Sequence record: PP216085
Length of the DNA stretch: 64,000 bases
Direction: 5' to 3' (one strand)
Source: Escherichia phage vB_EcoM_HZ_ZJUN4
The position numbers and the translations under genes are program-made. Below, one piece after another: positions 1,567-58,202 of the stretch. Position 1 is the stretch's first letter. The number at the start of each line of letters is the position of its first letter. The notes beneath the pieces were generated by a model. It made no database searches. It saw nothing but the letters and a program-made list of their open reading frames with translations, and was not told the DNA's origin.

Positions 1567-2402
1567 ATTACGATAGATTTTATCCCTGTGATTTTGTGAA
1601 TGATAAATTATCTTTAATATTTGAAGAAAATAATGATTTACTATTGTCATATGTTGATTTGATAACAAAAAATTATAATAATCCTAAAATAAAAGGAAAA
1701 ACGGAAGCACATCACGTGCTTCCCAAATCTATATTTCCCGAATATAAAACAGATAAATGGAATATTGTTAATTTGTCATATTATGACCACGCGTTAGCTC
1801 ATTACTATTTAGCTAAAACAAGTAATAGTAAAATGTGTTATGCCTTTCATAGAATGATAAACTCGAATACCGATAGATTTAATACAGATGAATTGGATGA
1901 AATTCTTAAATTGTATTCCAGTGAAAAGGAATTATTTCACCGCTCTATGTCAAAATTATCGAAAAATATATGGAAGGATGACGATTTTAGAAAAAGACAT
2001 AGAGAACTAACTAAGTTAGCAATGCAAAAACCTGAAGTTAGAAATAAAACTTTATTAAATTTGTCAAATGCAATGAAAACTGACGAAGTTAGAAATAAAA
2101 TTTCCAGGCTAACTAAGTTAGCAATGCAAAAACCTGAAGTAAAAGAAAAACATAGAAATTCATTGAGGTTGGCGTATGCAAATCCTGAGGTTATGAAAAG
2201 AAAACATCAACGTCTTCGAGAAAAATATACTCTTAATTTATTTGGCGCATATAAAGATGGTGTTCTTTTAAAAACATTTAATTATATACCAGACGCAGCA
2301 AAATATTTTAATATTTCTAGCAAAGGAAATATTTTAAAATGTTTAAATGGCGAACGTAAAAGTGTTGAAGGCTATAATTGGAAATATATAAATGAATTAT
2401 GA
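1563..2402 (+). CDS. HNH-family homing endonuclease-like protein (Mob-like)
   Basis: 279-aa ORF with HH..N..H core (EAHHVLPKS...NLSYYDHALAHYYL) resembling T4 Mob HNH proteins; ATGA overlap with nrdD stop; first 13 codons near-identical to nrdG start; internal repeated DNA-binding-like motifs. Confidence 0.65.
   Translation: MNYDRFYPCDFVNDKLSLIFEENNDLLLSYVDLITKNYNNPKIKGKTEAHHVLPKSIFPEYKTDKWNIVNLSYYDHALAHYYLAKTSNSKMCYAFHRMINSNTDRFNTDELDEILKLYSSEKELFHRSMSKLSKNIWKDDDFRKRHRELTKLAMQKPEVRNKTLLNLSNAMKTDEVRNKISRLTKLAMQKPEVKEKHRNSLRLAYANPEVMKRKHQRLREKYTLNLFGAYKDGVLLKTFNYIPDAAKYFNISSKGNILKCLNGERKSVEGYNWKYINEL
2007..2143 (+). repeat. direct repeat of ~34 bp (ctaactaagttagcaatgcaaaaacctgaagt) about 100 bp apart inside the HNH gene
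   Basis: Two near-identical copies starting at 2007 and 2109 encoding LTKLAMQKPEV; gaagttagaaataaa also recurs. Confidence 0.8.
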
Positions 2403-7178: not shown

Positions 7179-7202
7179 AAACCAAAACAATGAGGATATT
7201 AA

Positions 7203-8405
7203 ATGAAAGTATGTATTTTTATGGCTCGAGGTCTTGAAGGTTGCGGTGTAACTAAATTTTCTCTTGAGCAGCGTGATTGGTTTATTAAAAATGGTCATGA
7301 AGTAACTTTGGTTTATGCTAAAGATAAATCATTTACTCGTAATTGCGCGCATGATTATAAATCATTTTCAATTCCGGTTTTATTGGCAAAAGAATACGAT
7401 AAAACACTTAAGTTGGTAAATGATTGTGATATTCTAATTATCAATTCAGTTCCTGCTACTTCAGTTGAAGAAGACACGATTAATAACTATAAAAAAATTA
7501 TTGATAACATTAAACCTTCGGTTCGTGTTGTAGTTTATCAGCATGACCATTCTTCTCTTTCTTTACGCCGAAATTTGGGATTAGAAGAAACTGTTCGTCG
7601 AGCTGATGTTATTTTTAGCCATTCTGATAATGGCGATTTTAATAAAGTTTTAATGAAAGAATGGTATCCAGAAACTGTTTCACTGTTTGATGATATTGAA
7701 GAAGCACCGACTGTATATAACTTTCAGCCTCCTATGGATATTGCGAAGGTTCGATCAACTTACTGGAAAGATGTTTCTGAAATTAACATGAATATCAACC
7801 GTTGGATTGGTCGTACTACTACATGGAAAGGCTTTTATCAGATGTTTGATTTTCACGAAAAACATCTTAAACCTGCAGGACTAAGTACTATTATGGAAGG
7901 TCTGGAACGTTCTCCAGCGTTCATTCCTATTAAAGAAAAAGGAATTCCATACGAGTATTATCGTCTTCATCAAGTAGACCAAATTAAAATTGCTCCTAAT
8001 TTGCCAACGCAAATTCTCGACCGTTATGTAAATAGCGAAATGCTTGAACGTATGAGTAAATCCGGATTTGGTTATCAGCTGAGTAAATTAGATAAAAAAT
8101 ATCTACAACGTTCTTTAGAATACACTCATCTCGAGCTTGGTGCATGCGGAACAATTCCAGTATTTTGGAAATCTACTGGTGAAAATTTAAAATTCCGTGT
8201 TGATAATACTCCGTTAATTTCTCATGATAGCGGTATCGTTTGGTTTGATGAAAATGACATGAAATCAACATTTGAGCGTATTAAAGAACTGTCATCTGAC
8301 CGAGCTCTTTATGACCGTGAACGTGAAAAAGCTTATGAATTTTTGTATCAGCATCAAGATTCAAGCTTCTGCTTTAAAGAGCAGTTTGACATTATTACAA
8401 AATAA
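7203..8405 (+). CDS. a-gt: DNA alpha-glucosyltransferase
   Basis: 400-aa ORF MKVCIFMARGLEGCGVTKF... recognised as T4 alpha-gt; position upstream of 47. Confidence 0.88.
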   Translation: MKVCIFMARGLEGCGVTKFSLEQRDWFIKNGHEVTLVYAKDKSFTRNCAHDYKSFSIPVLLAKEYDKTLKLVNDCDILIINSVPATSVEEDTINNYKKIIDNIKPSVRVVVYQHDHSSLSLRRNLGLEETVRRADVIFSHSDNGDFNKVLMKEWYPETVSLFDDIEEAPTVYNFQPPMDIAKVRSTYWKDVSEINMNINRWIGRTTTWKGFYQMFDFHEKHLKPAGLSTIMEGLERSPAFIPIKEKGIPYEYYRLHQVDQIKIAPNLPTQILDRYVNSEMLERMSKSGFGYQLSKLDKKYLQRSLEYTHLELGACGTIPVFWKSTGENLKFRVDNTPLISHDSGIVWFDENDMKSTFERIKELSSDRALYDREREKAYEFLYQHQDSSFCFKEQFDIITK

Positions 8406-18807: not shown

Positions 18808-19548
18808 ATGATTAATGACTCTATGACAGTTGAAGAAATTCGTCTTCATTTGGGAATTGCATTAAAGGAAAAAGATTTTGTAATTGACAAAACCGGGGTT
18901 AAAACTATTGAAATTATTGGTGCATCATTTGTAGCAGATGAACCTTTTATTTTTGGCGCTCTTAATGATGAATACATTCAGCGTGAACTTGAATGGTATA
19001 AGTCTCAAAGTTTGTTTGTTAAAGATATTCCAGGTGAAACACCAAAGATTTGGCAGCAGGTAGCATCTTCTAAAGGCGAAATTAACTCGAATTATGGTTG
19101 GGCTATTTGGTCAGAAGATAACTATGCTCAGTATGATATGTGTTTAGCTGAACTTGGTCAAAATCCTGATTCTCGGCGTGGTATCATGATTTATACTCGT
19201 CCATCCATGCAGTTTGACTACAATAAAGATGGTATGTCAGATTTCATGTGTACGAATACAGTACAGTACCTGATTCGTGATAAGAAAGTCAATGCAGTAG
19301 TAAGCATGAGAAGCAATGATTGCTGGGCAGGCTATCGTAATGATTATGCTTGGCAAAAATACGTACTAGATAAATTAGTATCTGACTTGAATGCAGGCGA
19401 CCCATCGCGGCAATATAAAGCAGGTTCTATTATATGGAACGTTGGAAGTCTTCATGTGTACGAAAATCAGTTTTATTTAGTTGACCATTGGTGGAACACC
19501 GGTGAGACTCATATTGCTAAAAAGGATTATACTGGAAAATGGAAGTAA
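18808..19548 (+). CDS. 42: dCMP hydroxymethylase gp42
   Basis: 246 aa; thymidylate-synthase-like fold sequence recognised as T4 gp42. Confidence 0.9.
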   Translation: MINDSMTVEEIRLHLGIALKEKDFVIDKTGVKTIEIIGASFVADEPFIFGALNDEYIQRELEWYKSQSLFVKDIPGETPKIWQQVASSKGEINSNYGWAIWSEDNYAQYDMCLAELGQNPDSRRGIMIYTRPSMQFDYNKDGMSDFMCTNTVQYLIRDKKVNAVVSMRSNDCWAGYRNDYAWQKYVLDKLVSDLNAGDPSRQYKAGSIIWNVGSLHVYENQFYLVDHWWNTGETHIAKKDYTGKWK

Positions 19549-20180
19549 ATGTGCCACATGTTTATAAGTATAAACATCCTAAAACTAAAAAGTGGTATAT
19601 AGGAAGTCATGATGGTCACAACCCGAATTATGATGGTTCGGGTGTAGTTTGGCAACATGCTAAAAAGAAATATGGAATAAAATCCTTTAATAAAGAAATA
19701 TTATATGAAGGACCAATGTTTAGACAGGTTGAAGAAATTATTTTAACTTGTTTAGATGCTGCTAATTGTCCGGATTCATATAATTTAAAGAATGAAGCAT
19801 GGGGAGGAAGTTTTCCAGGCAAATTAAATGGAATGTACGGTAAAAAACTATCTCCAGAAGAAAGATATAAGTGCGGAAATGCCTTTCGTGGAATCAAGCG
19901 TCCTGATCATTCTAAAAGAATGAAAGGCGAAGGTAATCCAATGTATGGTAAAAATGAGCAGGCATATGGAATTATAAATCGAGCCAAGGAAAATTCTGGT
20001 AAAACTTATGAAGAAATTTTTGGCGTAGAAAAAGCTAAAATAATTAAAGAAACGATGTCTAAAAATCGTAAAGGAAAACCTCATAATTTGATAGAAAAAA
20101 TATGTCCGCATTGCGGACTAAAAGGACGTGGGCCAAATATGACAAGATACCATTTTGACAAATGTAAGGCACTTAAATGA
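19539..20180 (+). CDS. GIY-YIG homing endonuclease-like protein (Seg-like)
   Basis: N-terminal VYKYKHPKTKKWYIGS (GIY..YIG variant); C-terminal CPHCG..C zinc finger; overlaps gene 42 stop. Confidence 0.6.
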   Translation: MEVNVPHVYKYKHPKTKKWYIGSHDGHNPNYDGSGVVWQHAKKKYGIKSFNKEILYEGPMFRQVEEIILTCLDAANCPDSYNLKNEAWGGSFPGKLNGMYGKKLSPEERYKCGNAFRGIKRPDHSKRMKGEGNPMYGKNEQAYGIINRAKENSGKTYEEIFGVEKAKIIKETMSKNRKGKPHNLIEKICPHCGLKGRGPNMTRYHFDKCKALK

Positions 20181-21019
20181 TTCAATTCGTAATTCCAAGT
20201 TATCAACGCGTAGGGGCAGTTTCTGCCCTTGATATGTTTCCGACTGATTATGAACCTCATATTGTAGTACGTGAACACGAAGAAAAAGCTTATTATGACG
20301 CTTACGGGTCTAGAGCTAAAATTATAACTATTCCTGATGATGTTAATGGAATTGCTGGAACTCGTAAAGCAATTACTGATATGTATGCAGGTCAACGAAT
20401 CTGGATGATTGACGATGATACTACTATTCGTATGAGTTCAATGCGAAAGAAAGATGATCGTCGCTGCGTAGATAAAATTAACCAGTTAACTCGTGAACAG
20501 TTCTATGAATTGATTCAATACGTTGAAGATGCCATGGATTGCGGGTATTATCATGGTCATGCTCGTTTACCTATTTTTAAAATTACTTCATCTTGGGGTA
20601 ATTATCGTGAAAATTCATATGGATTCACGAATACTTGGTATGACCTCGGAAAACTTGCAACAGAACAAATTGGGTATGGAAAAATTGATTTATGCGAAGA
20701 TATGTATGCATTTCTCAATTTAATTAATCAAGGTTATCCGCATTTGGCCTTGTTCAAATATCTAGTTGTATCTGGAAAAGCACAGGCTCCCGGTGGATGC
20801 AGCTCAATTCGTAGTAATTCAAAACATAATAGAGCGCTTGAGCAAATCAATAGAGAGTTTCCAGAGCAAGCTCGTTGGAAAACTTCTAATATTGAAAAAC
20901 GAAAATCATTGGGTGAAGAAGACGAGCCATTAAAGGTTCTTCGCATGTGTGTTTCACGCAAAGAAAAGTCAGAAGCATTTCATAAGTTTAATGCTATTCA
21001 TCCAATAGCAGTTGATTAA
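20177..21019 (+). CDS. putative glycosyltransferase with DxD motif (WMIDDDTT); candidate T2/T6-type beta-glucosyl-HMC-alpha-glucosyltransferase at the T4 beta-gt locus
   Basis: 280-aa ORF between 42 and uvsX; no resemblance to T4 beta-gt as I recall it; DxD after hydrophobic strand. Confidence 0.4.
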   Translation: MIQFVIPSYQRVGAVSALDMFPTDYEPHIVVREHEEKAYYDAYGSRAKIITIPDDVNGIAGTRKAITDMYAGQRIWMIDDDTTIRMSSMRKKDDRRCVDKINQLTREQFYELIQYVEDAMDCGYYHGHARLPIFKITSSWGNYRENSYGFTNTWYDLGKLATEQIGYGKIDLCEDMYAFLNLINQGYPHLALFKYLVVSGKAQAPGGCSSIRSNSKHNRALEQINREFPEQARWKTSNIEKRKSLGEEDEPLKVLRMCVSRKEKSEAFHKFNAIHPIAVD

Positions 21020-27328: not shown

Positions 27329-28668
<1,340 letters not shown>

Positions 28669-28728: not shown

Positions 28729-29247
28729 ATGGCTCACTTTAATGAATGTGCTCATTTGATCGAAGGTGTTGATAAAGCAAATCGTGCATATGCTGAGAAT
28801 ATTATGCACAATATTGACCCACTGCAGGTTATGCTTGATATGCAGAAATCTTTACAGATTCGCTTGGCTAATGATAAGCCAGAAACAAATCGTCATCCTG
28901 ATTCGCTTGAAACTGCAGGAGAAGTTCTTGCTTGGTTGCGAAACCAAGACGATTATATCGCAGACGAAACTCGCGAGCTATATACTTCTCTTGGCGGTAT
29001 GAGTAATGGCGAAAAAGAAGCTTCTGCTGTATGGAAACCTTGGAAGAAACGTTATTCTGAAATGCAATCCAAGAAAATTCAAGATTTATCTCCTGAAGAT
29101 CAACTTGAAATTAAATTTGAACTAATTGACCAATTTCACTTTTTCATGAATAAATTCATTGCTCTTGGAATGTCAGCTGAAGAAATCTTTAAACTTTATT
29201 ATCTGAAAAATGCCGAAAACTTCGCTCGTCAAGACCGAGGCTATTAA
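28729..29247 (+). CDS. 56: dCTP pyrophosphatase gp56
   Basis: MAHFNECAHLIEGVDKAN... recognised as T4 gp56; AAGGAAAA SD; MazG-like. Confidence 0.85.
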   Translation: MAHFNECAHLIEGVDKANRAYAENIMHNIDPLQVMLDMQKSLQIRLANDKPETNRHPDSLETAGEVLAWLRNQDDYIADETRELYTSLGGMSNGEKEASAVWKPWKKRYSEMQSKKIQDLSPEDQLEIKFELIDQFHFFMNKFIALGMSAEEIFKLYYLKNAENFARQDRGY

Positions 29248-29414
29248 TGGCTCGTTTAAATAAACGTCAGCTTAAGAAAGCCCATAAGAAACGTATTGAC
29301 CAGCTATTTAAAGATTATAACAAAGAGCTCGTGTGTGAGCTCTTAACTAATCAACTTCGTATGGTTGAAATTATAGAAGGTCCTGACGAAATTTTGTCAG
29401 TGAAGAAGCTTTAA
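29247..29414 (+). CDS. hypothetical small basic protein (55 aa)
   Basis: ATG overlaps gene 56 stop (TAATG); not in track. Confidence 0.35.
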   Translation: MARLNKRQLKKAHKKRIDQLFKDYNKELVCELLTNQLRMVEIIEGPDEILSVKKL

Positions 29415-29443
29415 AATTAATTATAGAGCATTCAAAATGAAAT

Positions 29444-29647
29444 TTGATTTTTTATGCATGGCAAAAAGCCGGGAGACCGGCTAGTCGAGCATTTGGTTCC
29501 GATGGATATAATATTAGAGCCCATTGGAAATTTAATGCTCCAGAAGATTATTCTCCGGTAATTATTAACGGCGATGTTGTTATATTAACTAAAATCGGGT
29601 ATTTTAACGTTCCGCGAGAATTTATTATAAATAATCATGTAATTTAA
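29444..29647 (+). CDS. hypothetical protein
   Basis: 67-aa ORF between 56 and soc. Confidence 0.35.
   Translation: MIFYAWQKAGRPASRAFGSDGYNIRAHWKFNAPEDYSPVIINGDVVILTKIGYFNVPREFIINNHVI
29626..29633 (+). promoter_or_regulatory. T4 late promoter TATAAATA upstream of soc
   Basis: Exact TATAAATA about 30 nt upstream of soc ATG. Confidence 0.6.
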
Positions 29648-36823: not shown

Positions 36824-36889
36824 CACCATAGCTACTGAGGATAATAAAATGAAAATTTATCGTGTTGAATCATCGTTTAGTGAATTAAA

Positions 36890-38662: not shown

Positions 38663-39034
38663 ATGTTTAAAATTGGTAAGAAATATCGCATTCGTGAAGG
38701 TGAAGAACAGAAATATCTACTTTCTGCTAGTAATAGGAATAGTTCTATTAATGCTGTAATATTGACTAGTGAATTTATCGTTGAAGATATGAAAGGTCAT
38801 AATGTTACAATGATTAGTACAGCATCTAGAAATGACGGAAAAATTCTTCATAGTTGTCAGAGTAGTGTTCTAATTTATGATGAAGAATTTGACTTCTTCA
38901 AAGAAGTTTCCGAAGATTTTGATTTTGAATGCACTATCACTATGAAATCTGGCGACCCTCTTTCTTTTACAGTTAAAGATGAAAGAAGCCGCTTGAGAAT
39001 TATTAGTCTCCTTCAAGCCATTAAATTTGAGTGA
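38663..39034 (+). CDS. hypothetical protein
   Basis: 123-aa ORF. Confidence 0.5.
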   Translation: MFKIGKKYRIREGEEQKYLLSASNRNSSINAVILTSEFIVEDMKGHNVTMISTASRNDGKILHSCQSSVLIYDEEFDFFKEVSEDFDFECTITMKSGDPLSFTVKDERSRLRIISLLQAIKFE

Positions 39035-39299
39035 AATTATGAAATATGTTAATCGTTCTATCGCAGCATTAGTATTAGCAGTATCTTTAGTAGGATGTAC
39101 TGATGCTGATAATGCAACCAAAGTTTTGTCTTCAAGCGGTTTTACTAATATTGAAATCACTGGATATAATTGGTTCGGTTGCTCTGAAAATGATTTCCAA
39201 CACACTGGATTTCGTGCTATTGGACCTACCGGGCAGAAAGTAGAAGGAACAGTATGTTCTGGTCTATTCTTCAAGGATTCGACTATCCGTTTTAAATAA
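39027..39299 (+). CDS. predicted lipoprotein (signal peptide, LVGC lipobox)
   Basis: MKYVNRSIAALVLAVSLVGCTD... Confidence 0.5.
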   Translation: MSEIMKYVNRSIAALVLAVSLVGCTDADNATKVLSSSGFTNIEITGYNWFGCSENDFQHTGFRAIGPTGQKVEGTVCSGLFFKDSTIRFK

Positions 39300-39300
39300 A

Positions 39301-39314
39301 AGGCCTTCGGGCCT
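39301..39314 (+). terminator. hairpin aggccttcgggcct
   Basis: GC stem and UUCG loop after lipoprotein gene. Confidence 0.5.
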
Positions 39315-39315
39315 T

Positions 39316-39341
39316 TAGCTTTATGATTACCGGAGTATAAT
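39316..39341 (+). promoter_or_regulatory. candidate MotA-dependent middle promoter (tAGCTTTA 39316-39323, TATAAT 39336-39341, 12-nt spacing)
   Basis: Same module as 8421-8446. Confidence 0.45.
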
Positions 39342-39368
39342 ATTCCCGAAACCAAACGAGGATAAGTG

Positions 39369-40919
39369 ATGATTAAGAATGAAATTAAAATTCTAAGCGA
39401 TATTGAACATATCAAAAAGCGTAGCGGCATGTATATTGGCTCTTCTGCTAATGAAATGCATGAGCGCTTTCTGTTTGGTAAATGGGAAAGTGTTCAGTAT
39501 GTACCTGGTCTTGTTAAGCTTATTGATGAAATTATCGATAACTCAGTAGATGAAGGTATTCGTACTAAGTTTAAATTCGCAAATAAAATTAATGTTACTA
39601 TTAAAAACAATCAAGTAACAGTTGAAGATAACGGTCGTGGTATTCCACAAGCGATGGTTAAAACACCTACCGGTGAAGAAATTCCTGGTCCTGTTGCTGC
39701 ATGGACTATTCCAAAAGCAGGCGGTAACTTTGGTGATGATAAAGAACGCGTCACTGGCGGTATGAACGGTGTTGGTTCTAGTTTAACTAACATTTTTTCT
39801 GTGATGTTTGTCGGTGAAACTGGCGACGGTCAAAATAATATTGTAGTTCGTTGTTCAAATGGCATGGAAAATAAATCATGGGAAACTATTCCTGGAAAAT
39901 GGAAAGGAACTCGCGTTACTTTCATTCCTGATTTTATGTCATTTGAAACTAATGAGCTATCTCAAGTTTATCTTGACATTACACTAGATCGTCTCCAGAC
40001 ACTTGCAGTAGTTTATCCTGATATTCAATTTACCTTTAATGGTAAAAAGGTTCAGGGTAATTTTAAGAAATATGCACGCCAATATGATGAACACGCTATC
40101 GTTCAAGAACAAGAAAATTGTTCTATTGCGGTTGGTCGTTCACCCGATGGTTTTCGTCAATTAACATACGTCAATAACATTCATACTAAGAATGGTGGCC
40201 ATCACATTGACTGCGTTATGGATGATATTTGTGAAGACCTTATTCCACAAATCAAACGTAAGTTCAAAATTGACGTAACTAAAGCACGTGTTAAAGAATG
40301 TTTGACTATCGTTATGTTTGTTCGTGATATGAAAAACATGCGATTTGATTCTCAAACTAAAGAGCGTCTGACTTCTCCATTTGGTGAAATCCGTAGTCAT
40401 ATTCAGCTTGATGCTAAAAAGATTTCACGTGCTATTTTGAATAATGAAGCAATTTTAATGCCAATCATTGAAGCTGCCTTGGCTCGTAAATTGGCGGCAG
40501 AAAAAGCAGCAGAAACTAAAGCAGCTAAAAAGGCTTCTAAAGCTAAGGTTCATAAACATATTAAAGCGAATCTTTGCGGTAAAGATGCTGATACTACTCT
40601 TTTCTTGACTGAGGGTGATTCTGCTATCGGATATCTTATTGATGTTCGTGATAAAGAACTTCATGGTGGTTATCCATTGCGTGGTAAAGTTCTTAACAGT
40701 TGGGGTATGTCATATGCTGATATGCTTAAAAATAAAGAACTGTTTGATATTTGCGCAATCACTGGATTAGTTCTTGGTGAAAAGGCGTTTGAAGAAAAAG
40801 AAGATGGCGAGTGGTTTACTTTCGAACTAAATGGCGATACAATTATCGTAAATGAAAATGATGAAGTACAGATTAATGGTAAATGGATAACAGTAGGTGA
40901 ATTACGAAAAAATCTATAA
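39369..40919 (+). CDS. 39: DNA topoisomerase II large subunit gp39 (GyrB-like ATPase), N-terminal part of split gene
   Basis: 516 aa from ATG 39369; GHKL ATPase motifs (NSVDEG, GRGIP, GGMNGVGSS). Confidence 0.9.
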   Translation: MIKNEIKILSDIEHIKKRSGMYIGSSANEMHERFLFGKWESVQYVPGLVKLIDEIIDNSVDEGIRTKFKFANKINVTIKNNQVTVEDNGRGIPQAMVKTPTGEEIPGPVAAWTIPKAGGNFGDDKERVTGGMNGVGSSLTNIFSVMFVGETGDGQNNIVVRCSNGMENKSWETIPGKWKGTRVTFIPDFMSFETNELSQVYLDITLDRLQTLAVVYPDIQFTFNGKKVQGNFKKYARQYDEHAIVQEQENCSIAVGRSPDGFRQLTYVNNIHTKNGGHHIDCVMDDICEDLIPQIKRKFKIDVTKARVKECLTIVMFVRDMKNMRFDSQTKERLTSPFGEIRSHIQLDAKKISRAILNNEAILMPIIEAALARKLAAEKAAETKAAKKASKAKVHKHIKANLCGKDADTTLFLTEGDSAIGYLIDVRDKELHGGYPLRGKVLNSWGMSYADMLKNKELFDICAITGLVLGEKAFEEKEDGEWFTFELNGDTIIVNENDEVQINGKWITVGELRKNL

Positions 40920-41715
40920 TGACTTAATAGTGCGGGGTAAAACCCGCGTTTCTAAATTTAAGGGTGAAATTCATCATATCCTTCCAAGATCAATGGGAGG
41001 TTCTGATGATAAAGAAAATTTGGTGAAACTGACTTTTCGTGAACATTTTTTAGCACATTTTCTACTATATAAAATTCATCGTAATCGTGAAATGGCATAT
41101 GCGATGAATAGAATGTTAAACACTGAAAAATATTTACGTTCTAGTAAATTATATGAAATTACTAGAATTTACCATCAAAGAGCAGTATCTGAATGGTCAA
41201 AAAACTTTATGAAAGATAAAGTTTTAATGAGAAGTATTAAATCGGGTAAATGCGCCTTATTAATTAAAGGATCATTTAACCCAAAGGAATGGTGCGGTGT
41301 TAATAAAGGTGTTAAGCTTCCTGGAATTAAAGGCATGACATGCTTTAAAAATGAAAAAGGCGAAGTTTTTCGTCTTCATGTTAATGATCCACGCATTAAA
41401 GCTGAAAAATTAGTTGGTATTGGAAATACTGTTGCTGCTACTGCAAAAGCAGCTGAACTTGAAAAAGCGAAACCATGGTATAATAAATCAGCGACAAATC
41501 CAGAGGCTGTAAAATTAATACCAAATTTATATGAATGGTACGTCACGAAATATGACCCCGATCATTATAAACGAACGGGAGTTGCTAAATGGAAATCAGT
41601 TAATAATATAACTGTGAATTCAAAATTATTCGGCCGAGCATTTAATGAATTTAAACGCGGTTGGATTCCTGATGAAAAGTTCTATGAGGTGTATAATGAA
41701 ATTTGTAAAAATTGA
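40897..41715 (+). CDS. mobA: HNH homing endonuclease (MobA-like) between genes 39 and 60
   Basis: 272 aa; EIHHILPRSMGGSDDKENLVKLTFREHFLAHF HNH core; overlaps 39 end and 60 start. Confidence 0.7.
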   Translation: MNYEKIYNDLIVRGKTRVSKFKGEIHHILPRSMGGSDDKENLVKLTFREHFLAHFLLYKIHRNREMAYAMNRMLNTEKYLRSSKLYEITRIYHQRAVSEWSKNFMKDKVLMRSIKSGKCALLIKGSFNPKEWCGVNKGVKLPGIKGMTCFKNEKGEVFRLHVNDPRIKAEKLVGIGNTVAATAKAAELEKAKPWYNKSATNPEAVKLIPNLYEWYVTKYDPDHYKRTGVAKWKSVNNITVNSKLFGRAFNEFKRGWIPDEKFYEVYNEICKN

Positions 41716-41833
41716 TTCTTCTAGCGTTGATATGAAAAAATATAAATTGCAGAACAATGTTCGTCGTTCTATTAAATCCTCTTCAATGAACTATGCGAAT
41801 GTCGCTATTATGACAGACGCAGATCACGATGGA
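41696..41833 (+). CDS. 60: topoisomerase II subunit gp60, codons 1-46 (pre-bypass)
   Basis: MKFVKIDSSSVDMKKYKLQNNVRRSIKSSSMNYANVAIMTDADHDG ends at take-off GGA followed by TAG. Confidence 0.9.
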
Positions 41834-41883
41834 TAGCCTTCGGGCTATCTATAGAAATACCTCATAATTAAGAGATTATTGGA
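41834..41883 (+). promoter_or_regulatory. 60: gene 60 translational bypass coding gap (50 nt): UAG stop plus take-off stem-loop tagccttcgggctatct, ending at landing GGA 41881-41883
   Basis: Sequence GAT GGA TAG CCTTCGGGCTATCTATAGAAATACCTCATAATTAAGAGATTATT GGA TTA GGT matches the T4 gene 60 hop element as I recall it. Confidence 0.9.
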
Positions 41884-42228
41884 TTAGGTTCTATTTATCC
41901 TTCTCTGCTCGGATTTTTTAGTAATTGGCCAGAATTGTTTGAACAAGGAAGAATTCGCTTTGTCAAAACTCCTGTAATCATCGCTCAGGTCGGTAAAAAA
42001 CAAGAATGGTTTTATACAGTCGCTGAATATGAGAGTGCCAAAGATGCTCTACCTAAACATAGCATCCGTTATATTAAAGGACTTGGCTCTTTGGAAAAAT
42101 CTGAATATCGTGAGATGATTCAAAACCCAGTATATGATGTTGTTAAACTTCCTGAGAACTGGAAAGAGCTTTTTGAAATGCTCATGGGAGATAATGCTGA
42201 CCTTCGTAAAGAATGGATGAGCCAGTAG
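41884..42228 (+). CDS. 60: gp60 post-bypass segment (LGSIYPSLLGFFSNW...)
   Basis: In-frame continuation after landing codon; track lists only 41935-42228 from an internal Met. Confidence 0.88.
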   Translation, partial: LGSIYPSLLGFFSNWPELFEQGRIRFVKTPVIIAQVGKKQEWFYTVAEYESAKDALPKHSIRYIKGLGSLEKSEYREMIQNPVYDVVKLPENWKELFEMLMGDNADLRKEWMSQ

Positions 42229-42258
42229 TTTACTTTACCACAAGGACGTGGTATAATT
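42225..42258 (+). promoter_or_regulatory. T4-type early promoter (GTTTAC 42228-42233, TGGTATAAT -10 42252-42257)
   Basis: Near-consensus. Confidence 0.6.
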
Positions 42259-42282
42259 AATTGGGCAAATGAGGATATTGAA

Positions 42283-42486
42283 ATGAAATCATATAAAGTA
42301 AATTTAGAACTTTTTGATAAAGCAGTTCATCGAGAATATAGAATCATTCAACGCTTTTTCGATATGGGAGAAGCCGAAGAGTTTAAAAACCGCTTTAAGA
42401 ATATTAGAGATAAAATTCAATCCGACACCGCAACTAAAGATGAACTACTAGAAGTTGCTGAAGTTATTAAACGCAATATGAATTAA
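42283..42486 (+). CDS. hypothetical protein
   Basis: 67-aa ORF upstream of rIIA. Confidence 0.5.
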
Positions 42487-42496
42487 TGAGGAAATT

Positions 42497-44674
42497 ATGA
42501 TTATCACCACTGAAAAAGAAACTATTCTTGGTAATGGTTCTAAATCAAAAGCATTTAGCATCACAGCATCTCCTAAAGTATTTAAAATTCTGTCATCTGA
42601 TTTGTATACAAACAAGATTCGCGCAGTAGTACGTGAATTGATTACTAATATGATTGATGCCCATGCTCTTAATGGAAATCCTGAAAAATTTATCATACAA
42701 GTTCCAGGACGATTAGACCCACGATTTGTTTGCCGAGATTTTGGTCCGGGTATGAGCGATTTTGATATTCAGGGTGATGATAATTCTCCTGGGTTGTATA
42801 ATTCATACTTTAGTTCATCTAAGGCTGAATCTAACGATTTCATTGGCGGATTTGGTTTAGGTTCTAAATCTCCGTTTAGTTATACTGATACATTTAGTAT
42901 TACTTCATATCATAAAGGTGAAATTCGTGGTTATGTAGCTTACATGGATGGTGACGGTCCGCAGATTAAACCTACATTCGTAAAAGAAATGGGTCCAAAT
43001 GATAAAACTGGTATTGAAATCGTAGTTCCAGTTGAAGAAAAAGACTTTAGAAACTTTGCTTATGAAGTTTCTTATATCATGCGACCATTCAAAGATTTGG
43101 CTATTATTAATGGTCTTGACCGTGAAATTGATTATTTTCCGGATTTTGATGACTATTACGGCGTAAATCCAGAAAGATATTGGCCAGATCGTGGTGGATT
43201 GTATGCTATCTATGGCGGTATTGTTTATCCTATTGATGGTGTTATTAGAGACCGTAACTGGTTAAGCATCCGCAATGAAGTGAATTATATTAAGTTTCCA
43301 ATGGGTTCACTTGATATTGCTCCATCGCGTGAGGCTCTTTCACTAGATGATCGTACTCGTAAAAATATTATTGAGCGTGTTAAAGAGCTCAGTGAGAAGG
43401 CATTTAATGAAGATGTAAAACGATTTAAAGAATCTACATCTCCTCGTCATACATACCGTGAATTGATGAAGATGGGGTATTCTGCTCGAGATTATATGAT
43501 TAGTAATTCAGTCAAATTCACGACTAAAAATCTGTCATATAAGAAGATGCAGAGCATGTTTGAACCTGACAGTAAGTTATGCAATGCAGGGGTTGTGTAT
43601 GAAGTAAATCTTGACCCTCGACTGAAACGCATTAAGCAAAGTCATGAAACTTCAGCCGTTGCATCAAGCTATCGTCTGTTTGGTATTAATACGACAAAAA
43701 TTAATATTGTTATTGATAATACTAAAAATCGTGTTAATATTGTCCGTGGATTAGCACGCGCGTTAGATGATAGTGAATTTAATAACACCTTAAATATTCA
43801 TCACAATGAGCGGCTTCTGTTTATTAATCCGGAAGTAGAATCGCAGATTGATTTGCTTCCTGATATTATGGCAATGTTTGAAAGTGATGAAGTTAACATT
43901 CATTATTTATCAGAAATTGAAGCTTTAGTTAAAAGTTATATTCCAAAGGCAGTAAAAAGTACAGCTCCTCGTCCTAAAGCTGCTACTGCATTTAAGTTTG
44001 AAATTAAAGACGGGCGCTGGGAAAAAGAGGAATTGTTTACGCTCACATCAGAAGCAGATGAAATTACTGGTTATGTAGCATACATGCATCGTTCTGATAT
44101 TTTCTCTATGGATGGTACTACATCGCTTTGTCATCCATCTACGAGTATTTTGACTCGTATGGCTAATCTTATTGGCATTAATGAATTTTATGTTATTCGT
44201 CCGCTTTTGCAGAAAAAGGTAAAAGAACTTGGTCAATGCCAATGTATTTTTGAAACTTTGCGTGATTTATATGTAGATGCTTTTGATGATGTAGATTATG
44301 ATAAGTATGTAGGTTATTCAAGTTCAGCTAAACGATATATTGATAAAATTATCAAGTATCCTGAGTTAGATTTTATGATGAAGTACTTCAGTGTAGATGA
44401 AGTTTCTGAAGAATATACACGACTCGCTAATATGGTTAGTTCATTACAGGGTGTATATTTCAACGGTGGAAAAGATACCATCGGTCATGACATCTGGACA
44501 GTAACTAATCTTTTTGATGTATTATCAAATAATGCTTCAAAAAACAGTGATAAAATGGTTGCTGAGTTTACCAAGAAATTCCGTATTGTTTCCGACTTCA
44601 TCGGTTATCGCAACTCTTTAAGTGATGATGAAGTTTCCCAAATCGCTAAAACTATGAAGGCCCTTGCGGCCTAA
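42497..44674 (+). CDS. rIIA: rIIA membrane-associated protein (lysis inhibition / exclusion phenotype)
   Basis: 725 aa; size and position as T4 rIIA; GHKL-like N-terminal region. Confidence 0.88.
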
Positions 44675-54067: not shown

Positions 54068-54844
54068 TTATACTCTTGGACCATATATTGCTCCAACGTT
54101 TTGCCATGTCGGTGTAGACCCTATGACGGCATAACCGGCAGCTCCGCCATCGTATTCATATCCTTGACCACGAATATTACATCTACCTCCCGCTGAACCT
54201 ACTTCACCGCCGTTTCCACCATTATAGATACCATTCACGGATCCTGAGCCAGGTGCAGAAATAGTACCGCCAGTCGCGCCTGATTGCATATCAATAGATC
54301 CGCCTGGCGCACCAAAAGGACGACCGCCACCGCCGCCAAAGGTCAATCTCATTTGTGAAAAAGGAGAATAATATCCGCCGCCACCGCCGCCGCCGCCGCC
54401 TGCAATAGCTCCGCCATTATTAATTCTTAGTCTCCCACCAATATCGTTTTGAATACAATGACCTCCAGCTGAGCCAGGACTATTGCTACCGCCATTACCT
54501 CCACGACCATACATCGTTACGCCATGTATATTTAACTGAACATATTCATTTGGTGTATCTCCGTACATGAAGAATAAAGGAACATCTTTAGAATATGATA
54601 CTAAATCTCCAGTGATATTAAACACTATAGGTGCACTACCTGCCTCAAAACATCTATCTCGGAACCATTGGCCATTGAAGTTATGGTCTGCTCCAAGCGT
54701 GTGAATTATTTCAACAGACCGCCCGTTCATATTACTCATCCAAAACGGAATACCCATTCTCAATCGTTGGGCGGCGCCGCCCATCCAATTTTGTCCTGTA
54801 TTAACTACTGCAGACGATCCTACCCACGGTCCTGTTACTGCCAT
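54068..54844 (-). CDS. 38: tail-fibre adhesin gp38, T2-type (glycine-rich motifs)
   Basis: Poly-Gly blocks ([23 protein letters not shown]) separating variable segments; ATG at 54844 after GGAGG (track start 54856 is TTG). Confidence 0.75.
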
Positions 54845-54856
54845 ATAAACCTCCAA

Positions 54857-54870
54857 GGGGCCGAAGCCCC
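54857..54870 (-). other. RNA hairpin GGGGCUUCGGCCCC between gene 37 stop and gene 38 SD
   Basis: Perfect 5-bp GC stem with UUCG loop on minus strand. Confidence 0.5.
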
Positions 54871-54875
54871 TCTTA

Positions 54876-57800
54876 TTATTTTAACAATGATTTAACTAAT
54901 GCTTTAAGTTCTTCAATTTCTGATTTAAGTTCCGCAATTTCTGCAGTATGCTCATTGATTGCAGCTGTATTTAAACCAATTACGCCGTTATAGTTCAAAC
55001 GAAGTAAAGCTTCACCATCAGGGTCACCTTCAACTAATTCTGGTAAAATAGCTTGAACTTCTTGAGCTATCAAACCGGCGTTAGGTTCCCATTTCTGATT
55101 GCCTTCTTCATCTAGGCCTCGCTTCTGCATATAAGTGTAACCGTTAATTTTAGAAAGCTTCTCAGAAGCATTTTCAAATTTAACAAGGTCTTTTTTAACA
55201 CGAATATCAGAGCGGACATAAACGTCACGAACAAATGTTGAATAGTTGTCATTCGCCTGAATCAAATGACCATGTGAAATAATAGCTTTGTCAACTTCAG
55301 TCCATAAAGCAGCACCAACAGACCACAATCCTGGGTGTTCTTGATGGAAAACCCCCCATGACGCAATATGTTGTCCGTTAGCAAACATGTTAATACGACC
55401 ATCACCGCCATGGACTAAACCAGTATCATTATCACCGATGGCGATAGATGCTCCGCCCCATACCGGAATTGTACCGACACCCAAGTTAACACCAGCGCGA
55501 AGACCAGCCGGAGCTTTAAAATCGCCATTAGCTTGAAACACAAATATTGCATTAGGATGACTGCTATCTCCACTTTCCGCAGAACCAACACGAATTACTG
55601 CATTTCCCCAAGTAGCATCTCCGCCCAATCTAATAATACCAAAATCTGCCTTTGTTGCATATCCTTCGTTAATGATTTGGCTTCTTCCTTTAATTATAGG
55701 CATATAACTATCTTTCGGAACAGATTCACCAAAGTCAACGAAGAATGGGGCTTCTGTTTGCCATTGATTACTATATCCGTGGCCTTGGGTAGCTGTCCAT
55801 TGTCTTCCGTTTAAATATAAACGATAAAAATTTAATGAAGCTGCAGTAGCTTGATTTTTAACATTAAAGTCAATATCGCCTACACTATTAAGAGTAATTC
55901 CTGCCGTAGTCTTAAAATTATAAAATGAAGCAGTGTCATCTGCCCCGCCTTTACCGATGTACCATGAATTCGCTCCACCTGATGTTCCAAGTAAATAACC
56001 AGAATCATTTTCATCGGCAGCAATGTTAATAGCGTCAGAGCCTCTTTTAACGATTAATTTGCCGGTCATCGTATCGCCTTCTTTAGCAACACGGGAGGCA
56101 ATAGCATCATGAAGGTTGGTTATATCACCAGCAGAGCTAAATAATTTCCAAATATCAGAGAAGATATTACCATTTCGAGCAATAGTAGCTTCGCCGCCAC
56201 CGACCTGTACGTTATCCGGGAAGTTAACTGTACCGTCCTGATTAAAACGAGACGTATGGCCTTGTGAACCATCTTCTTTCAGATGATGAATAACGAATGT
56301 ACCCGAATTAATTTCAGTACCTAAAGACCAAACAGCTTTGCCGTTTAAAAACTTCTGTTTAACAATAGGATAATATTTGCTTATAGCATCATCATCAATT
56401 TCCTGGAAAATAGGAGCTGCTTGAACATACTGAATGTCATAACCACCAGCGCCTGCGCCATGACCAGTAAATTTAATATAGCCGTTTGCTGCGAACGTAT
56501 TGTAACTTGATTGTAAATCTGGAATAGTAACTTTACCAGTATCTAAAGCCATACTAAACGGGCGAAGTGGACCGATATCACCATATTTACCTTCACCGTA
56601 AGCAGTTGGAATAATATGAAGACTTCCTTCTGAACGTCTAAAAATGGCTCCATAATCTGCGTTCCAAATACGAAGAGCATTCACTGCTCCAGATGAAATT
56701 TCGCCTGTTGTGTGAACTCCTCTATTTCCAGCAGTAACACCGGATGATTCAAATGAACCATTGACGTTCATTTCTACTTCGCCGGTAGTAAGTCTTTGAA
56801 TATAGCTCATCCAACTAGTTGCGTCAGAAATTTCCATGACATTTTTACGATTACCTACGCTAGGATTAGTAAACGTATTACCCCATACAGAAATTGTCAT
56901 ATTATCAACTGAACTGCTACCAGTTGTGTTACCTCTAAACATCAGCGTAGAAGCATTATTACGACCATCAATATTAACAGAACCACCAATAACGTCAATA
57001 TTACCTGGAGTGACTAACAAACCGCCGTGAGTATTAATGTTTGTGGTACCCTTACCGCGGAAATAATGATGATAATTACCACCTTGGTAATATCCTAAAA
57101 GAGTCTGACCGTCACCATACGCGTTATTATCATGGTAAGTAACAACAGTGGCTAATGCATAGTTTTCAGTTGGAGGAGTCGTTAAATCGGTTCCATTAGT
57201 AGAATATCCAGCTACAAATTTTCTTAGGCTAGTTGTTTCGCTAGGACTAAATAAAAATGTTTTCGTTCCATTATTAACGCTGAAATAATATCCGTCCTGA
57301 TGCCATTTTAGCCCGGTATCATTATCTCCAAGAGCAATTGAAGCAGTCCCTAGTTCAGAGTATCCTTTAGAGCCACCAGGAGTACCAACAGAAATAGAAT
57401 GGCCTGCTTTCAATCCACCGGACCAGGTAAACGACCAAAGATAGGCATCTAACCCGTCACCGGCGTACCAGGTTATCCCGTCGTTATCTTTAACTTCATG
57501 GAATATACCAGATCCTACGGCATTTCGCATAACACGGAGGTGGTTAATAGCCGTTTCGCTTTCTGCCAATGGAGTGTTATTTGCTAATGAAGATATATCA
57601 TAATCGCCCGTCTTCTTCCCATCTGTAATAACTTTATCGGTCAGAATTTGTGGAGACGAAATAGATTTCCACGCTGATACTTCAGGTGAAGTAAATAGTC
57701 CACTGCCTGAAAATGCATAGGTGCTTTCGCTTCCTGCAGCATAATCTTGAACCCTGATATTAAGTACTTGTGTAGTTAATCCATCATTAGCCGGGGCATA

Positions 57801-58202
57801 AATGATTCCGCGTTCGCGGCTATTGCCATCGAAAAAACGAACATGTGATGTACCTGAACTTTTTGTAATAAGTTCTCCGCCCTCAGTCATAATTTGCCCG
57901 GCGGCAATAATATCGCGAGTTACTCGAGCAATACCAGTTAAATTAAAATTACCTGTCTGAGTGAAGGTGCCATTTAAAGTATAATCACCAGTTTGATTAT
58001 AATTTCCTATATGAATAACATTCCCGTCAATACTACCGCCCTTAGCAAAACCCAGATCAATGATATTTCCTTGGTCATCTTTAGTAAAAAGTACGCGGTC
58101 TTTTAAGTTTATAGCCAATTCACCTTCGGCTAATACTGAAGCGGCAGGACGTGCTCCTGCAGTTTTGCTTCTTTTAAATTGTATTTGTTTTAAAGTAGCC
58201 AT
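54876..58202 (-). CDS. 37: long tail fibre distal subunit gp37
   Basis: 1108 aa, Gly/Thr/Ser/Asn-rich fibrous protein; [13 protein letters not shown] start; order 34-35-36-37-38. Confidence 0.88.

Follow-up and report, generated by a model that had tools for sequence, protein, structure and literature searches.

The window analyzed here (64,000 nucleotides of Escherichia phage vB_EcoM_HZ_ZJUN4, sequence record PP216085) almost certainly contains a MobA mobile element of the kind known from T4, which interrupts the gene for the topoisomerase II large subunit in a Tequatrovirus other than T4. None of the observations speaks against this identification. Three genes follow one another on the forward strand in the order 39, mobA, and 60 (39369-40919, 40897-41715, and 41696-42228); mobA shares 23 nt with gene 39 (40897-40919) and 20 nt with gene 60 (41696-41715) and is read in a frame that differs from those of both neighbors. 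An earlier note on this DNA had described a gp39 of 516 amino acids, an HNH gene overlapping the end of gene 39 and the start of gene 60, and a bypass within gene 60, and all of these coordinates were confirmed. Ribosomal skipping of 50 nucleotides has its classic example in gene 60, and the cassette as a whole illustrates how an essential gene can be entered by a selfish nuclease that uses neither an intron nor an intein; no features of either were found at the locus. The arrangement and its mobility, as well as protection by the bypass insert, have already been published (Bonocora, Zeng, Abel & Shub, PNAS 2011), and such elements have been catalogued, with close T4 relatives like this phage among those listed (Manning & Atkins 2022). 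The window contributes a further natural copy, which is intact and lies in a non-T4 genome, and, as a minor addition, population evidence for movement of the element between Tequatrovirus backgrounds.

Insertion of the element into the topoisomerase gene

The limits of the element were placed by blastn and by direct junction alignment against six unsplit genes (from T2, T6, RB32, BMB16, KIT06, and EP01; each of 1,818 nt, encoding 605 amino acids), the comparison with uninterrupted 39+60 genes that the earlier note had suggested. These genes match the window at positions 39369 to 40786 and 41893 to 42228 and break off cleanly at both ends: the left break lies after parental nt 1418 (40786/40787), and identity resumes at parental nt 1483 (41893), from where the window is 98.2% identical to RB32 nt 1483 to 1818 by blastn. 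An insertion of 1,106 nt on the forward strand (40787-41892) is thereby defined, which replaces 64 nt (nt 1419-1482) of the uninterrupted gene at a point within the region that codes for TOPRIM, in what is otherwise a single run of 605 codons. Both the proposed insertion into an ancestrally fused gene and the unsplit state given in the note for T2 and T6 were borne out, the latter by contiguous 605-amino-acid genes in both phages. MobA elements elsewhere are 1097 to 1106 nt long (Manning & Atkins, bioRxiv 2022), and the parental deletions that they make span 55 to 75 nt; the values in the window fit both ranges.

The element provides gp39 with a tail of 43 amino acids and carries an intact mobA; to gene 60 it brings a new start with its ribosome-binding site, a 30-amino-acid leader, a recoded version of the target region that was deleted, and a 50-nt untranslatable insert between matched GGA codons. 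HomR, the version of the MobA target region borne by the element, was identified on the forward strand by comparison with T2 and occupies positions 41787 to 41833 and, after the gap, 41884 to 41892; 35 of 47 and 4 of 9 nt, respectively, are identical to T2, and 13 of its 19 codons differ, 10 of these synonymously. The MobA nick site is placed by Manning & Atkins (2022) in the parental counterpart of HomR, ∼20 nt upstream of the location of the bypass insert.

Gene 39 (ATG at 39369, TAA at 40917-40919) encodes the N-terminal piece of the topoisomerase II large subunit, with the GHKL ATPase, the transducer, and the first half of the TOPRIM domain (Pfam HATPase_c and DNA_gyraseB; profile match to phrog_543 with an E value of 9.5e-230). 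Residues 1 to 473 of gp39 are parental, and residues 474 to 516 form an element-encoded C-terminal extension (CTE) of 43 amino acids, FEEKEDGEWFTFELNGDTIIVNENDEVQINGKWITVGELRKNL, which is encoded in frame with gene 39 at 40787 to 40916 on the forward strand and was delimited by protein comparison with T2 gp39. A CTE of gp39 is conserved among MobA elements (Manning & Atkins, bioRxiv 2022), and in cryo-EM of T4 topo II it appears as a pendant on the TOPRIM domain. A promoter and terminator scan of 39000 to 42600 yielded sites no more numerous than in shuffled sequences.

The mobA endonuclease

The mobA gene (forward strand; GTG at 40897, TGA at 41713-41715) is predicted to encode an HNH homing endonuclease of 272 amino acids and matches the profile phrog_655, "homing endonuclease," with an E value of 1.1e-56. 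The earlier note had considered mutated catalytic residues, i.e., a pseudogene, as a reason for doubt; the 272-amino-acid ORF is instead intact over its full length, without frameshift or stop, and the residues H26, H27, N41, H50, and H54 are invariant among 23 homologues, in which the N-terminal MNY..IY is near-invariant as well. The HNH core, GEIHHILPRSMGGSDDKENLVKLTFREHFLAH, spans residues 23 to 54. By its HH...N...H motif, which aligns with those of a group II intron maturase and of Cas8-HNH, MobA would belong to the HNH (beta-beta-alpha-metal) superfamily, and catalysis is predicted; its Pfam HNH score is 20.1 bits against a curated cutoff of 21.4. An AF2 model (pLDDT of 83) has a beta-beta-alpha layout at residues 23 to 61, with strands at 23 to 27 and 42 to 46 and a helix at 47 to 61, and whole-chain fold searches with this model gave no significant match.

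Full-length orthologues, including one in Acinetobacter phage Stupor, are 47 to 98% identical to MobA, and orthologues align with its N and C termini end to end; around those at 55% identity in metagenomic contigs, the split topoisomerase, the hairpin, and the landing GGA are arranged in the same way. MobA is identical to its T4T counterpart at 270 of 272 residues, the exceptions being T89 (alanine in T4T) and A169 (threonine in T4T). In the T4 reference record (NC_000866), mobA is annotated as defective, whereas the gene in the window is intact and should be called as an intact 272-amino-acid gene in annotation.

Gene 60 and the 50-nt coding gap

Codons 1 to 46 of gene 60 (41696-41833, forward strand; ATG at 41696) follow a Shine-Dalgarno sequence, GAGG(T), at 41686 to 41690 and were assigned by translation and by the match to PDB 5np6 chain C, to which residues 1 to 46 are identical. 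Residues 1 to 30 are the unique N-terminal extension, which includes the nascent-peptide signal KYKLQNNVRRSIKSSS, and residues 31 to 46 are the recoded homologous region (16 amino acids of HomR) with the TOPRIM DxD motif DADHDG. The coding gap that follows (41834-41883, forward strand), TAGCCTTCGGGCTATCTATAGAAATACCTCATAATTAAGAGATTATTGGA, was read directly from the sequence, is identical to that of T4T, and is annotated as a bypass region in T4T, HY01, and NC_000866. Its take-off codon is GGA at 41831 to 41833 (codon 46), followed by UAG at 41834 to 41836; further in, in-frame stops are present, and a mini-Shine-Dalgarno GAG at 41872 to 41874 lies 6 nt upstream of the landing GGA (41881-41883), after which translation resumes at 41884. 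Codons 47 to 160 and the stop (41884-42228, forward strand; TAG at 42226-42228) encode the remaining half of TOPRIM together with the C-terminal domain, recognized as Pfam TOPRIM_C on the spliced protein; codons 47 to 49 (LGS, 41884-41892) are still element DNA, and parental DNA begins at 41893. In annotation, gene 60 should be joined across 41834 to 41883, where many public records give two CDS.

The spliced gp60 has 160 amino acids and is 100% identical to T4 gp60 (PDB 8yo3). The TOPRIM metal site is split between two proteins, because the glutamate E415 of LTEGDSA (GAG codon at 40611-40613) lies in gp39 and D41-x-D43-x-D45 (DADHD) in gp60. With the type IIA topoisomerases PDB 8yo3 and 8ylu as matches, the gene 39/60 product is, by sequence, a type IIA topoisomerase ATPase/TOPRIM subunit (GyrB-like).

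RNA folding predicted a take-off stem-loop of 10 bp at 41829 to 41852 on the forward strand, with a UUCG tetraloop at 41839 to 41842, which encloses the take-off GGA and the UAG (ΔG of −14.7 kcal/mol; z score of −4.2). All 10 pairs are kept in four distinct versions, with one compensatory change from A-U to G-C; four distinct sequences give a covariation test little power, and the observed value was reached by 84 of 500 shuffles. The 5′ stem-loop folds with a ΔG of −10.8, which is only marginally better than shuffles (z of −1.4), and the forward slippage barrier stretch (41884-41935; z of +1.0) folds no better than shuffles. Rfam holds no bypass-element family and gave no match anywhere in the window at gathering thresholds. 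From 41402 to 41942, i.e., over the last ∼310 nt of mobA, codons 1 to 46, the gap, and the landing site, the window is identical to T4T.

Production of full-length gp60 through bypassing has been demonstrated for the identical T4 sequence. By analogy with the experiments on that sequence, a ribosome on gene 60 would halt at GGA46-UAG; the peptidyl-tRNA(Gly) would then detach, a step favored by the nascent peptide and by formation of the UUCG hairpin in the A site. The mRNA would slide by 50 nt, and the tRNA would re-pair at the landing GGA with the help of the GAG mini-Shine-Dalgarno. The expected outcome is a 160-amino-acid gp60 that would join gp39 and gp52 to form active topoisomerase II. 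In a mixed infection, MobA would nick the uninterrupted gene of an element-free phage (T2, for example) within the counterpart of 41787 to 41833, and the element would be copied into the nicked genome through recombinational repair; protection of the element from its own nuclease would come from the 50-nt insert, not from silent recoding. The action of MobA on T2, its nicking and homing, and the protective bypass insert were reported by Bonocora et al. (2011), as related by Manning & Atkins (2022).

Spread of the element and comparison with other systems

The T4 cassette (T4T, HM137666) agrees with that of the window in insertion site, length of 1,106 nt, gene order, and overlaps, as well as in the 50-nt gap, the take-off and landing GGA codons, UAG, UUCG hairpin, GAG mini-Shine-Dalgarno, and nascent peptide, whereas the surrounding genome differs (in gene 39 upstream of the element, at 52 of 1,418 nt, and in gp39 at 4 amino acids). 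The T4T record annotates 39, mobA, 60, and a "non-coding translational bypass region" at homologous positions, and the architecture annotated in the HY01 record is identical to that of the window. The arrangement is not a chance feature, because ∼40 phage records carry the whole of it at 98 to 99.9% identity. Clade 1 MobA elements, from close T4 relatives (HY01, e11/2, RB55/59, and others), have been catalogued by Manning & Atkins (bioRxiv 2022). The features listed for clade 1 comprise insertion at Topo2L nt 1399 to 1419, a CTE of ∼44 amino acids, a MobA of 269 to 279 amino acids, an NTE made up of a unique part of ∼30 and a HomR of ∼15 amino acids, a deletion of 64 nt, and the codon pair GGA/GGA, and the window fits all of them; the 9 nt of HomR past the gap, which are peculiar to clade 1, are also present. 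The overlap of mobA with gene 39 is quoted in that preprint as "1-20 nt," compared to 23 nt in the window and in T4T when the GTG start is used.

The match to the T4 arrangement that the earlier note had drawn thus stood, but the window is not T4 itself; it comes from a relative whose gene 39 diverges from that of T4 by 3.7%. We rejected identity with T4 since the two are 97.9% identical over the locus and only 90 to 97% over the aligned blocks of the window, and also since ∼12 segments are replaced or missing. The nrdD intron with I-TevII, mobB, segF, and motB.1/.2 are absent relative to T4, and the glucosyltransferase and gp38 genes are of the T2/T6 type; with several T4-specific genes missing and T2/T6-type genes present, the phage is therefore not a close T4 descendant.

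Homologues that are uninterrupted and have a matching target, for which the earlier note had called, are abundant: gene 39 is matched by ∼500 records at 95 to 99% identity, with the element in only ∼40 and a contiguous gene in ∼460. In comparisons with T4T, Lv5cm, BF15, e11/2, and G50, the element differs at 1 to 5 of 1,106 nt (0.1 to 0.5%) and the left flank at 34 to 53 of 1,418 nt (Fisher P values of 2e-6 to 2e-12), so that the element is ∼10 times less diverged than the flank; for HY01-type copies, this contrast is weak (P values of 0.006 to 0.03). The window haplotype is T4-type, and the HY01-type differs from it at 14 to 16 positions, two of which lie in the gap (41850 and 41853). The left flank is closest to that of element-free phages (98.4%), compared to 96.3 to 97.6% for the element-bearing phages sampled. 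Because the element is far less diverged than the gene 39 flank, these sequence comparisons support horizontal movement of the element between Tequatrovirus backgrounds, although general homologous recombination among coinfecting T-even phages might also move the block without MobA. We see an even chance of a more specific history, in which a T2/T6-like Tequatrovirus without several other T4 homing elements recently and independently acquired the T4-type MobA element, with a very short coconversion tract (≤3 nt on the 5′ side and ≤50 nt on the 3′ side). If this is true, the ∼40 element-bearing and ∼460 element-free relatives would be a natural data set on a gene drive made of nuclease and bypass, from which its spread by homing, its turnover between T4-type and HY01-type haplotypes, and its decay in the wild could be measured.

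Vertical inheritance from a T4-like ancestor that was already split, with an element no longer mobile, would explain the low divergence by purifying selection on overlapping frames and RNA signals. In keeping with this, mobA overlaps both neighbors, the gene 60 leader and gap are dense in functional signals that would slow divergence, the right flank (41893-42228) is fairly conserved too (98 to 99%), and the defective mobA of the T4 reference record indicates that the nuclease can decay. We nevertheless consider it unlikely: the 819-nt mobA, although free of overlap over most of its length, shows only 1 to 4 differences from five other copies, compared to 34 to 53 in the essential gene 39; the gene 39 flank is nearer to element-free phages than to any element-bearing phage sampled; the missing T4-specific and present T2/T6-type genes speak against close descent from T4; and incongruent histories of element and flank are partly seen in the divergence comparison. 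Slightly less probable again is an inactive relic, in which the mobA ORF is intact but catalytically or functionally dead and only the split gene and the bypass work. Such a state is suggested by a private nonsynonymous change (A at 41161, giving threonine at MobA residue 89 where all 8 other copies have alanine), by the weak Shine-Dalgarno sequence that, on reading the sequence, alone precedes the GTG start, and by the repeated loss or pseudogenization of MobA after insertion (Manning & Atkins, bioRxiv 2022); however, residue 89 falls outside the HNH core, at an alignment position not conserved among homologues, and the full-length ORF has all HNH signature residues and termini that align end to end with orthologues.

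It is very improbable that the two-gene form came first and that the single 605-codon gene of T2 and T6 arose from it by deletion and fusion. The paper on the cryo-EM and activity of T4 versus T6 topo II offers "gene-fusion or gene-separation" as alternatives, and secondary re-fusions have occurred in some Aeromonas phages (Manning & Atkins, bioRxiv 2022). Yet contiguous genes outnumber split ones by ∼460 to ∼40 among the ∼500 Tequatrovirus records, the gyrase, topo IV, and eukaryotic topo II chains among the matches to gp60 likewise have TOPRIM in one piece, and a nuclease gene and a second, recoded version of the 64 nt that were lost stand exactly at the break. Moreover, the re-fused Aeromonas genes retain CTE/NTE scars (Manning & Atkins 2022), whereas T2, T6, and RB32 have none; direct alignment at nt 1419 to 1482 of T2/T6-type genes revealed no CTE- or NTE-like remnants.

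Insertion of a MobA element into a contiguous gene has counterparts in other homing systems. Intron- and intein-borne homing endonucleases (I-TevI to I-TevIII in T4) likewise invade an essential conserved gene whose function is rescued, but introns and inteins achieve this by RNA or protein splicing, in contrast to the two assembling protein pieces and the ribosomal bypass of the window. In Aeromonas phage Aeh1, the essential gene nrdA is likewise split, by MobE, with tails added so that the fragments assemble (Manning & Atkins 2022). MobB to MobE, free-standing HNH homing endonucleases of T-even phages, belong to the same endonuclease family as MobA of the window; typical Mob genes, unlike this mobA, are intergenic, interrupt no reading frame, and carry no bypass insert. 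A second HNH gene of the window (1563-2402) also matches phrog_655 and shares 29% identity with MobA across the N-terminal 177 amino acids.

Layout of the split topoisomerase locus

Translation of the open reading frames (ORFs) at 39369-42228 confirmed the order proposed in the earlier note, that is, gene 39, an HNH ORF, and gene 60. Gene 39 (plus strand, ATG 39369 to TAA 40917-40919) encodes 516 aa with GHKL ATPase and GyrB transducer domains, and it is followed in a different frame by mobA (plus strand, GTG 40897 to TGA 41713-41715; 272 aa), which shares its first 23 nt with gene 39 and its last 20 nt with gene 60. Gene 60 (plus strand) starts at ATG 41696, with a GAGG Shine-Dalgarno sequence upstream at 41686-41689. 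Its first part comprises 46 codons up to GGA 41831-41833, the next codon being UAG (41834-41836), and its second part lies 50 nt beyond, directly after a second GGA (41881-41883), and runs from 41884 to TAG 42226-42228. Joined, the two parts encode a 160-aa protein that is 100% identical to T4 gp60 in PDB 8yo3, and residues 1-46 correspond exactly to chain C of 5np6 (a 46-residue chain named "DNA topoisomerase small subunit"). The split parts the TOPRIM metal-site motifs, with E415 (LTEGDSA) in gp39 and DxD (DADHD, residues 41-45) in gp60.

In many genomes, gene 60 has been deposited as two coding sequences (46 aa, then a truncated ORF downstream) or flagged as "frameshift," and the mobA start codon varies among public annotations. 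Records with such annotation of gene 60 or mobA include MZ150757, MW822007, MK327942, MT764206, and MN580668 (loci L005, L006, and L008-L010). The bypass is routinely misannotated in public records.

The inserted MobA element and its probable spread

T2 (AP018813) and T6 (MH550421) are unsplit, as the earlier note stated; they carry a single gene of 1,818 nt (605 codons) at this locus, as do RB32, BMB16, KIT06, and EP01. In local alignments with RB32, nt 1-1418 of this parental gene match window positions 39369-40786 (96.3% identity), and nt 1483-1818 match 41893-42228 (98.2%). The left junction is sharp (GGTGAAAAAGC followed by TGAAAACTTG in the parental gene versus GGTGAAAAGGC followed by GTTTGAAGAA in the window), as is the right one, where identity picks up again at ATTTATCC. 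The inserted block is therefore 40787-41892, with 1,106 nt in place of 64 parental nt, which supports the proposal that the split gene is a mobile cassette in an ancestrally fused topoisomerase gene. The element begins with an in-frame C-terminal extension of gp39 (CTE; 43 aa) and continues with mobA, the ribosome-binding site and start codon of gene 60, a unique leader of 30 aa, a copy, 47 nt long, of the target region that was deleted (only 35 of 47 nt as in T2), the 50-nt gap, and a further 9 nt of recoded sequence. This homologous region (HomR) spans 19 codons, 13 of which differ from T2, 10 of them synonymously; since background divergence is ∼3%, HomR was not copied from the local parental gene. 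At 40784, 3 nt upstream of the junction, G is present in 7 of 9 element-bearing and 0 of 6 uninterrupted phages compared, and this base may be element linked (coconverted), or the true left end may lie slightly upstream.

The cassette is already known in full. The element was described in detail, with 14 close T4 relatives listed as carrying it, by Manning & Atkins (bioRxiv 2022), and the window shares each feature listed there: a size of 1097-1106 nt with insertion at nt 1399-1419, a CTE of ∼44 aa, a MobA of 269-279 aa, an N-terminal extension of gp60 (NTE) in which HomR follows a unique segment, a deletion of 64 nt (given for HY01), and, in the T4 clade, a HomR longer by 9 nt. In cryo-EM structures of T4 and T6 topoisomerase II (Nat Commun 2024), the ∼70-aa CTE+NTE insertion hangs off the TOPRIM domain, and its effect on activity was undetectable; the insertion is consistent with a role in assembly. 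The window contributes no more than a further intact copy of the T4 type, outside T4 itself, and some population evidence for spread.

MobA matches phrog_655, a phage homing-endonuclease family, from end to end (E 1e-56), and its core (GEIHHILPRSMGGSDDKENLVKLTFREHFLAH) aligns to the HNH domains of a group II intron maturase and Cas8-HNH. Residues H26, H27, N41, H50, and H54 are invariant in an alignment with 9 full-length orthologues (47-98% identity) and 13 remoter HNH proteins. The GTG start is supported by the N-terminal MNY..IY, which is nearly invariant among homologues. At 20.1 bits, the Pfam HNH match stays just below the cutoff of 21.4; an AlphaFold model (pLDDT 83) has the expected strand-strand-helix at residues 23-61, and whole-chain structure searches with it gave no significant match. 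Two residues differ from MobA of T4T (HM137666), one of which, T89 (nt 41161), is found in the window alone among 9 copies compared. Because the HNH residues are conserved and the ORF matches its family end to end, mobA is not the pseudogene that the earlier note had considered, in contrast to the T4 reference record NC_000866, where mobA is marked defective.

The element occurs in only ∼40 of ∼500 Tequatrovirus records matching gene 39 (95-99% identity). In the remainder the gene is uninterrupted, because the matches are two pieces spanning 1,818 nt; thus, the uninterrupted homologues with a matching target on which the earlier note's interpretation depended make up most of the records. Compared with the copies in T4T, Lv5cm, BF15, e11/2, and G50, the element has 1-5 differences per 1,106 nt, versus 34-53 per 1,418 nt in the adjoining gene 39 flank (Fisher P of 2e-6 to 2e-12), which is closest (98.4%) to element-free phages. 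Polymorphisms in the flank occur in different combinations in different phages as far as the junction itself; the nearest difference from T4T is at 40784, 3 nt off the element. HY01, JEP6, and pSe_SNUABM_01 carry another haplotype of the element, with 14-16 differing positions. Such a divergence pattern is expected if a discrete block was repeatedly transferred horizontally; on its own it would fit nuclease-driven homing and ordinary recombination alike and does not separate them. As cited by Manning & Atkins, Bonocora et al. (PNAS 2011) reported that MobA is an active homing endonuclease nicking T2 gene 39 inside the HomR-equivalent region, that in mixed infections it transferred both the split and the 50-nt insert, and that self-cleavage was blocked by the insert and not by silent polymorphisms.

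Bypass signals

The window is identical to T4T over 41402-41942, covering the entire gene 60 leader, gap, and landing region, and all mapped T4 bypass signals are therefore present at the sequence level: the matched GGA codons, the UAG following take-off, a GAG lying 6 nt before the landing codon, the nascent peptide KYKLQNNVRRSIKSSS, and a take-off hairpin at 41829-41852 (10 bp, UUCG loop; dG of −14.7 kcal/mol, z of −4.2). The hairpin was compared in four distinct versions (those of the window, of HY01, and of two metagenomic elements with MobA ∼55% identical), a number too small to carry statistical weight; all 10 pairs are kept, and one has changed in a compensatory way, from A-U to G-C, at the take-off codon's third base. 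Folding gave a marginal 5′ stem-loop (z of −1.4) and, within the stretch folded, did not recover the forward slippage barrier.

Divergent elements with MobA ∼55% identical were found in Logan contigs ERR11525658_2406 (L018, 3926-3976) and SRR30397383_1256 (L019, 3881-3937). In both, the topoisomerase gene is split in the same way, the take-off codon is GGG and is followed by UAG, the UUCG hairpin is the same, and landing is at GGA. The coding gap, 50 nt in the window, measures 51 nt in the first and 57 nt in the second; such natural gap-length variants could inform the bypass mechanism.

Genome background of the element

That the window is simply T4 was rejected: the 2,860 nt of the locus are 97.9% identical to T4/T4T, and the best match is Salmonella phage Lv5cm (98.6%). 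The best relatives reach 95-97% identity over 25 kb, and blocks aligned to T4T are 84-98% identical. The nrdD group I intron with I-TevII, mobB, segF, and motB.1/motB.2 are absent relative to T4T (284-287, 7187-7212, 29211-29625, and 36881-36885), the segF place (29211-29625) holding 415 nt with a 67-aa phrog_5773 ORF, and the window has its own DNA at ∼12 places, among them the T2/T6-type glucosyltransferase and gp38 genes described below. On these sequence grounds (identity to T4T, absent T4 genes, and own segments), the phage is a distinct Tequatrovirus with a T4-type cassette. The mobA element has thus been kept in a genome that is missing several of T4's other homing elements.

A second HNH homing-endonuclease gene lies at 1563-2402 (plus strand; 279 aa, phrog_655) between nrdD and nrdG, the mobC place in T4, with no DNA match to T4T there; in the N-terminal 177 aa its product shares 29% identity with MobA, and its C terminus is weakly NUMOD/I-HmuI-like. 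At 19539-21019 (plus strand), in place of T4 segA and the beta-glucosyltransferase gene, are a homing-endonuclease-like ORF unlike segA (213 aa, phrog_314) and a beta-glucosyl-HMC-alpha-glucosyltransferase gene (280 aa, phrog_842), a T2/T6-type DNA glucosylation gene. The distal tail-fiber region (54068-58202, minus strand) has no DNA match to T4T. Its gp38 is a 262-aa glycine-rich adhesin of the type in T2/T6 (Pfam GP38, E 4e-71), adjoined by a 1,108-aa ORF at the gp37 position; the adhesin type and the replaced region would imply a receptor specificity unlike that of T4. Between 39.2 and 39.1, a 123-aa ORF of unknown function (38663-39034, plus strand; phrog_622) is found in RB32, T6, BMB16, KIT06, and EP01 ("similar to RB69ORF005c") and not in T4T.

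Directly upstream of dam (27889-28668), a 186-aa ORF (27329-27889, plus strand; phrog_8706, unknown function) is also not in T4T. It occurs in ∼154 Tequatrovirus records; "hypothetical" is the label in nearly all of them, and a single record has "putative restriction endonuclease." Its match to Pfam DpnII-like is weak (17.8 bits, under the cutoff of 23), and a PD-(D/E)XK-like motif, FDIVI...IIEIKH, was read by eye. A putative GATC-nuclease-like gene abutting the GATC methylase gene is a lead.
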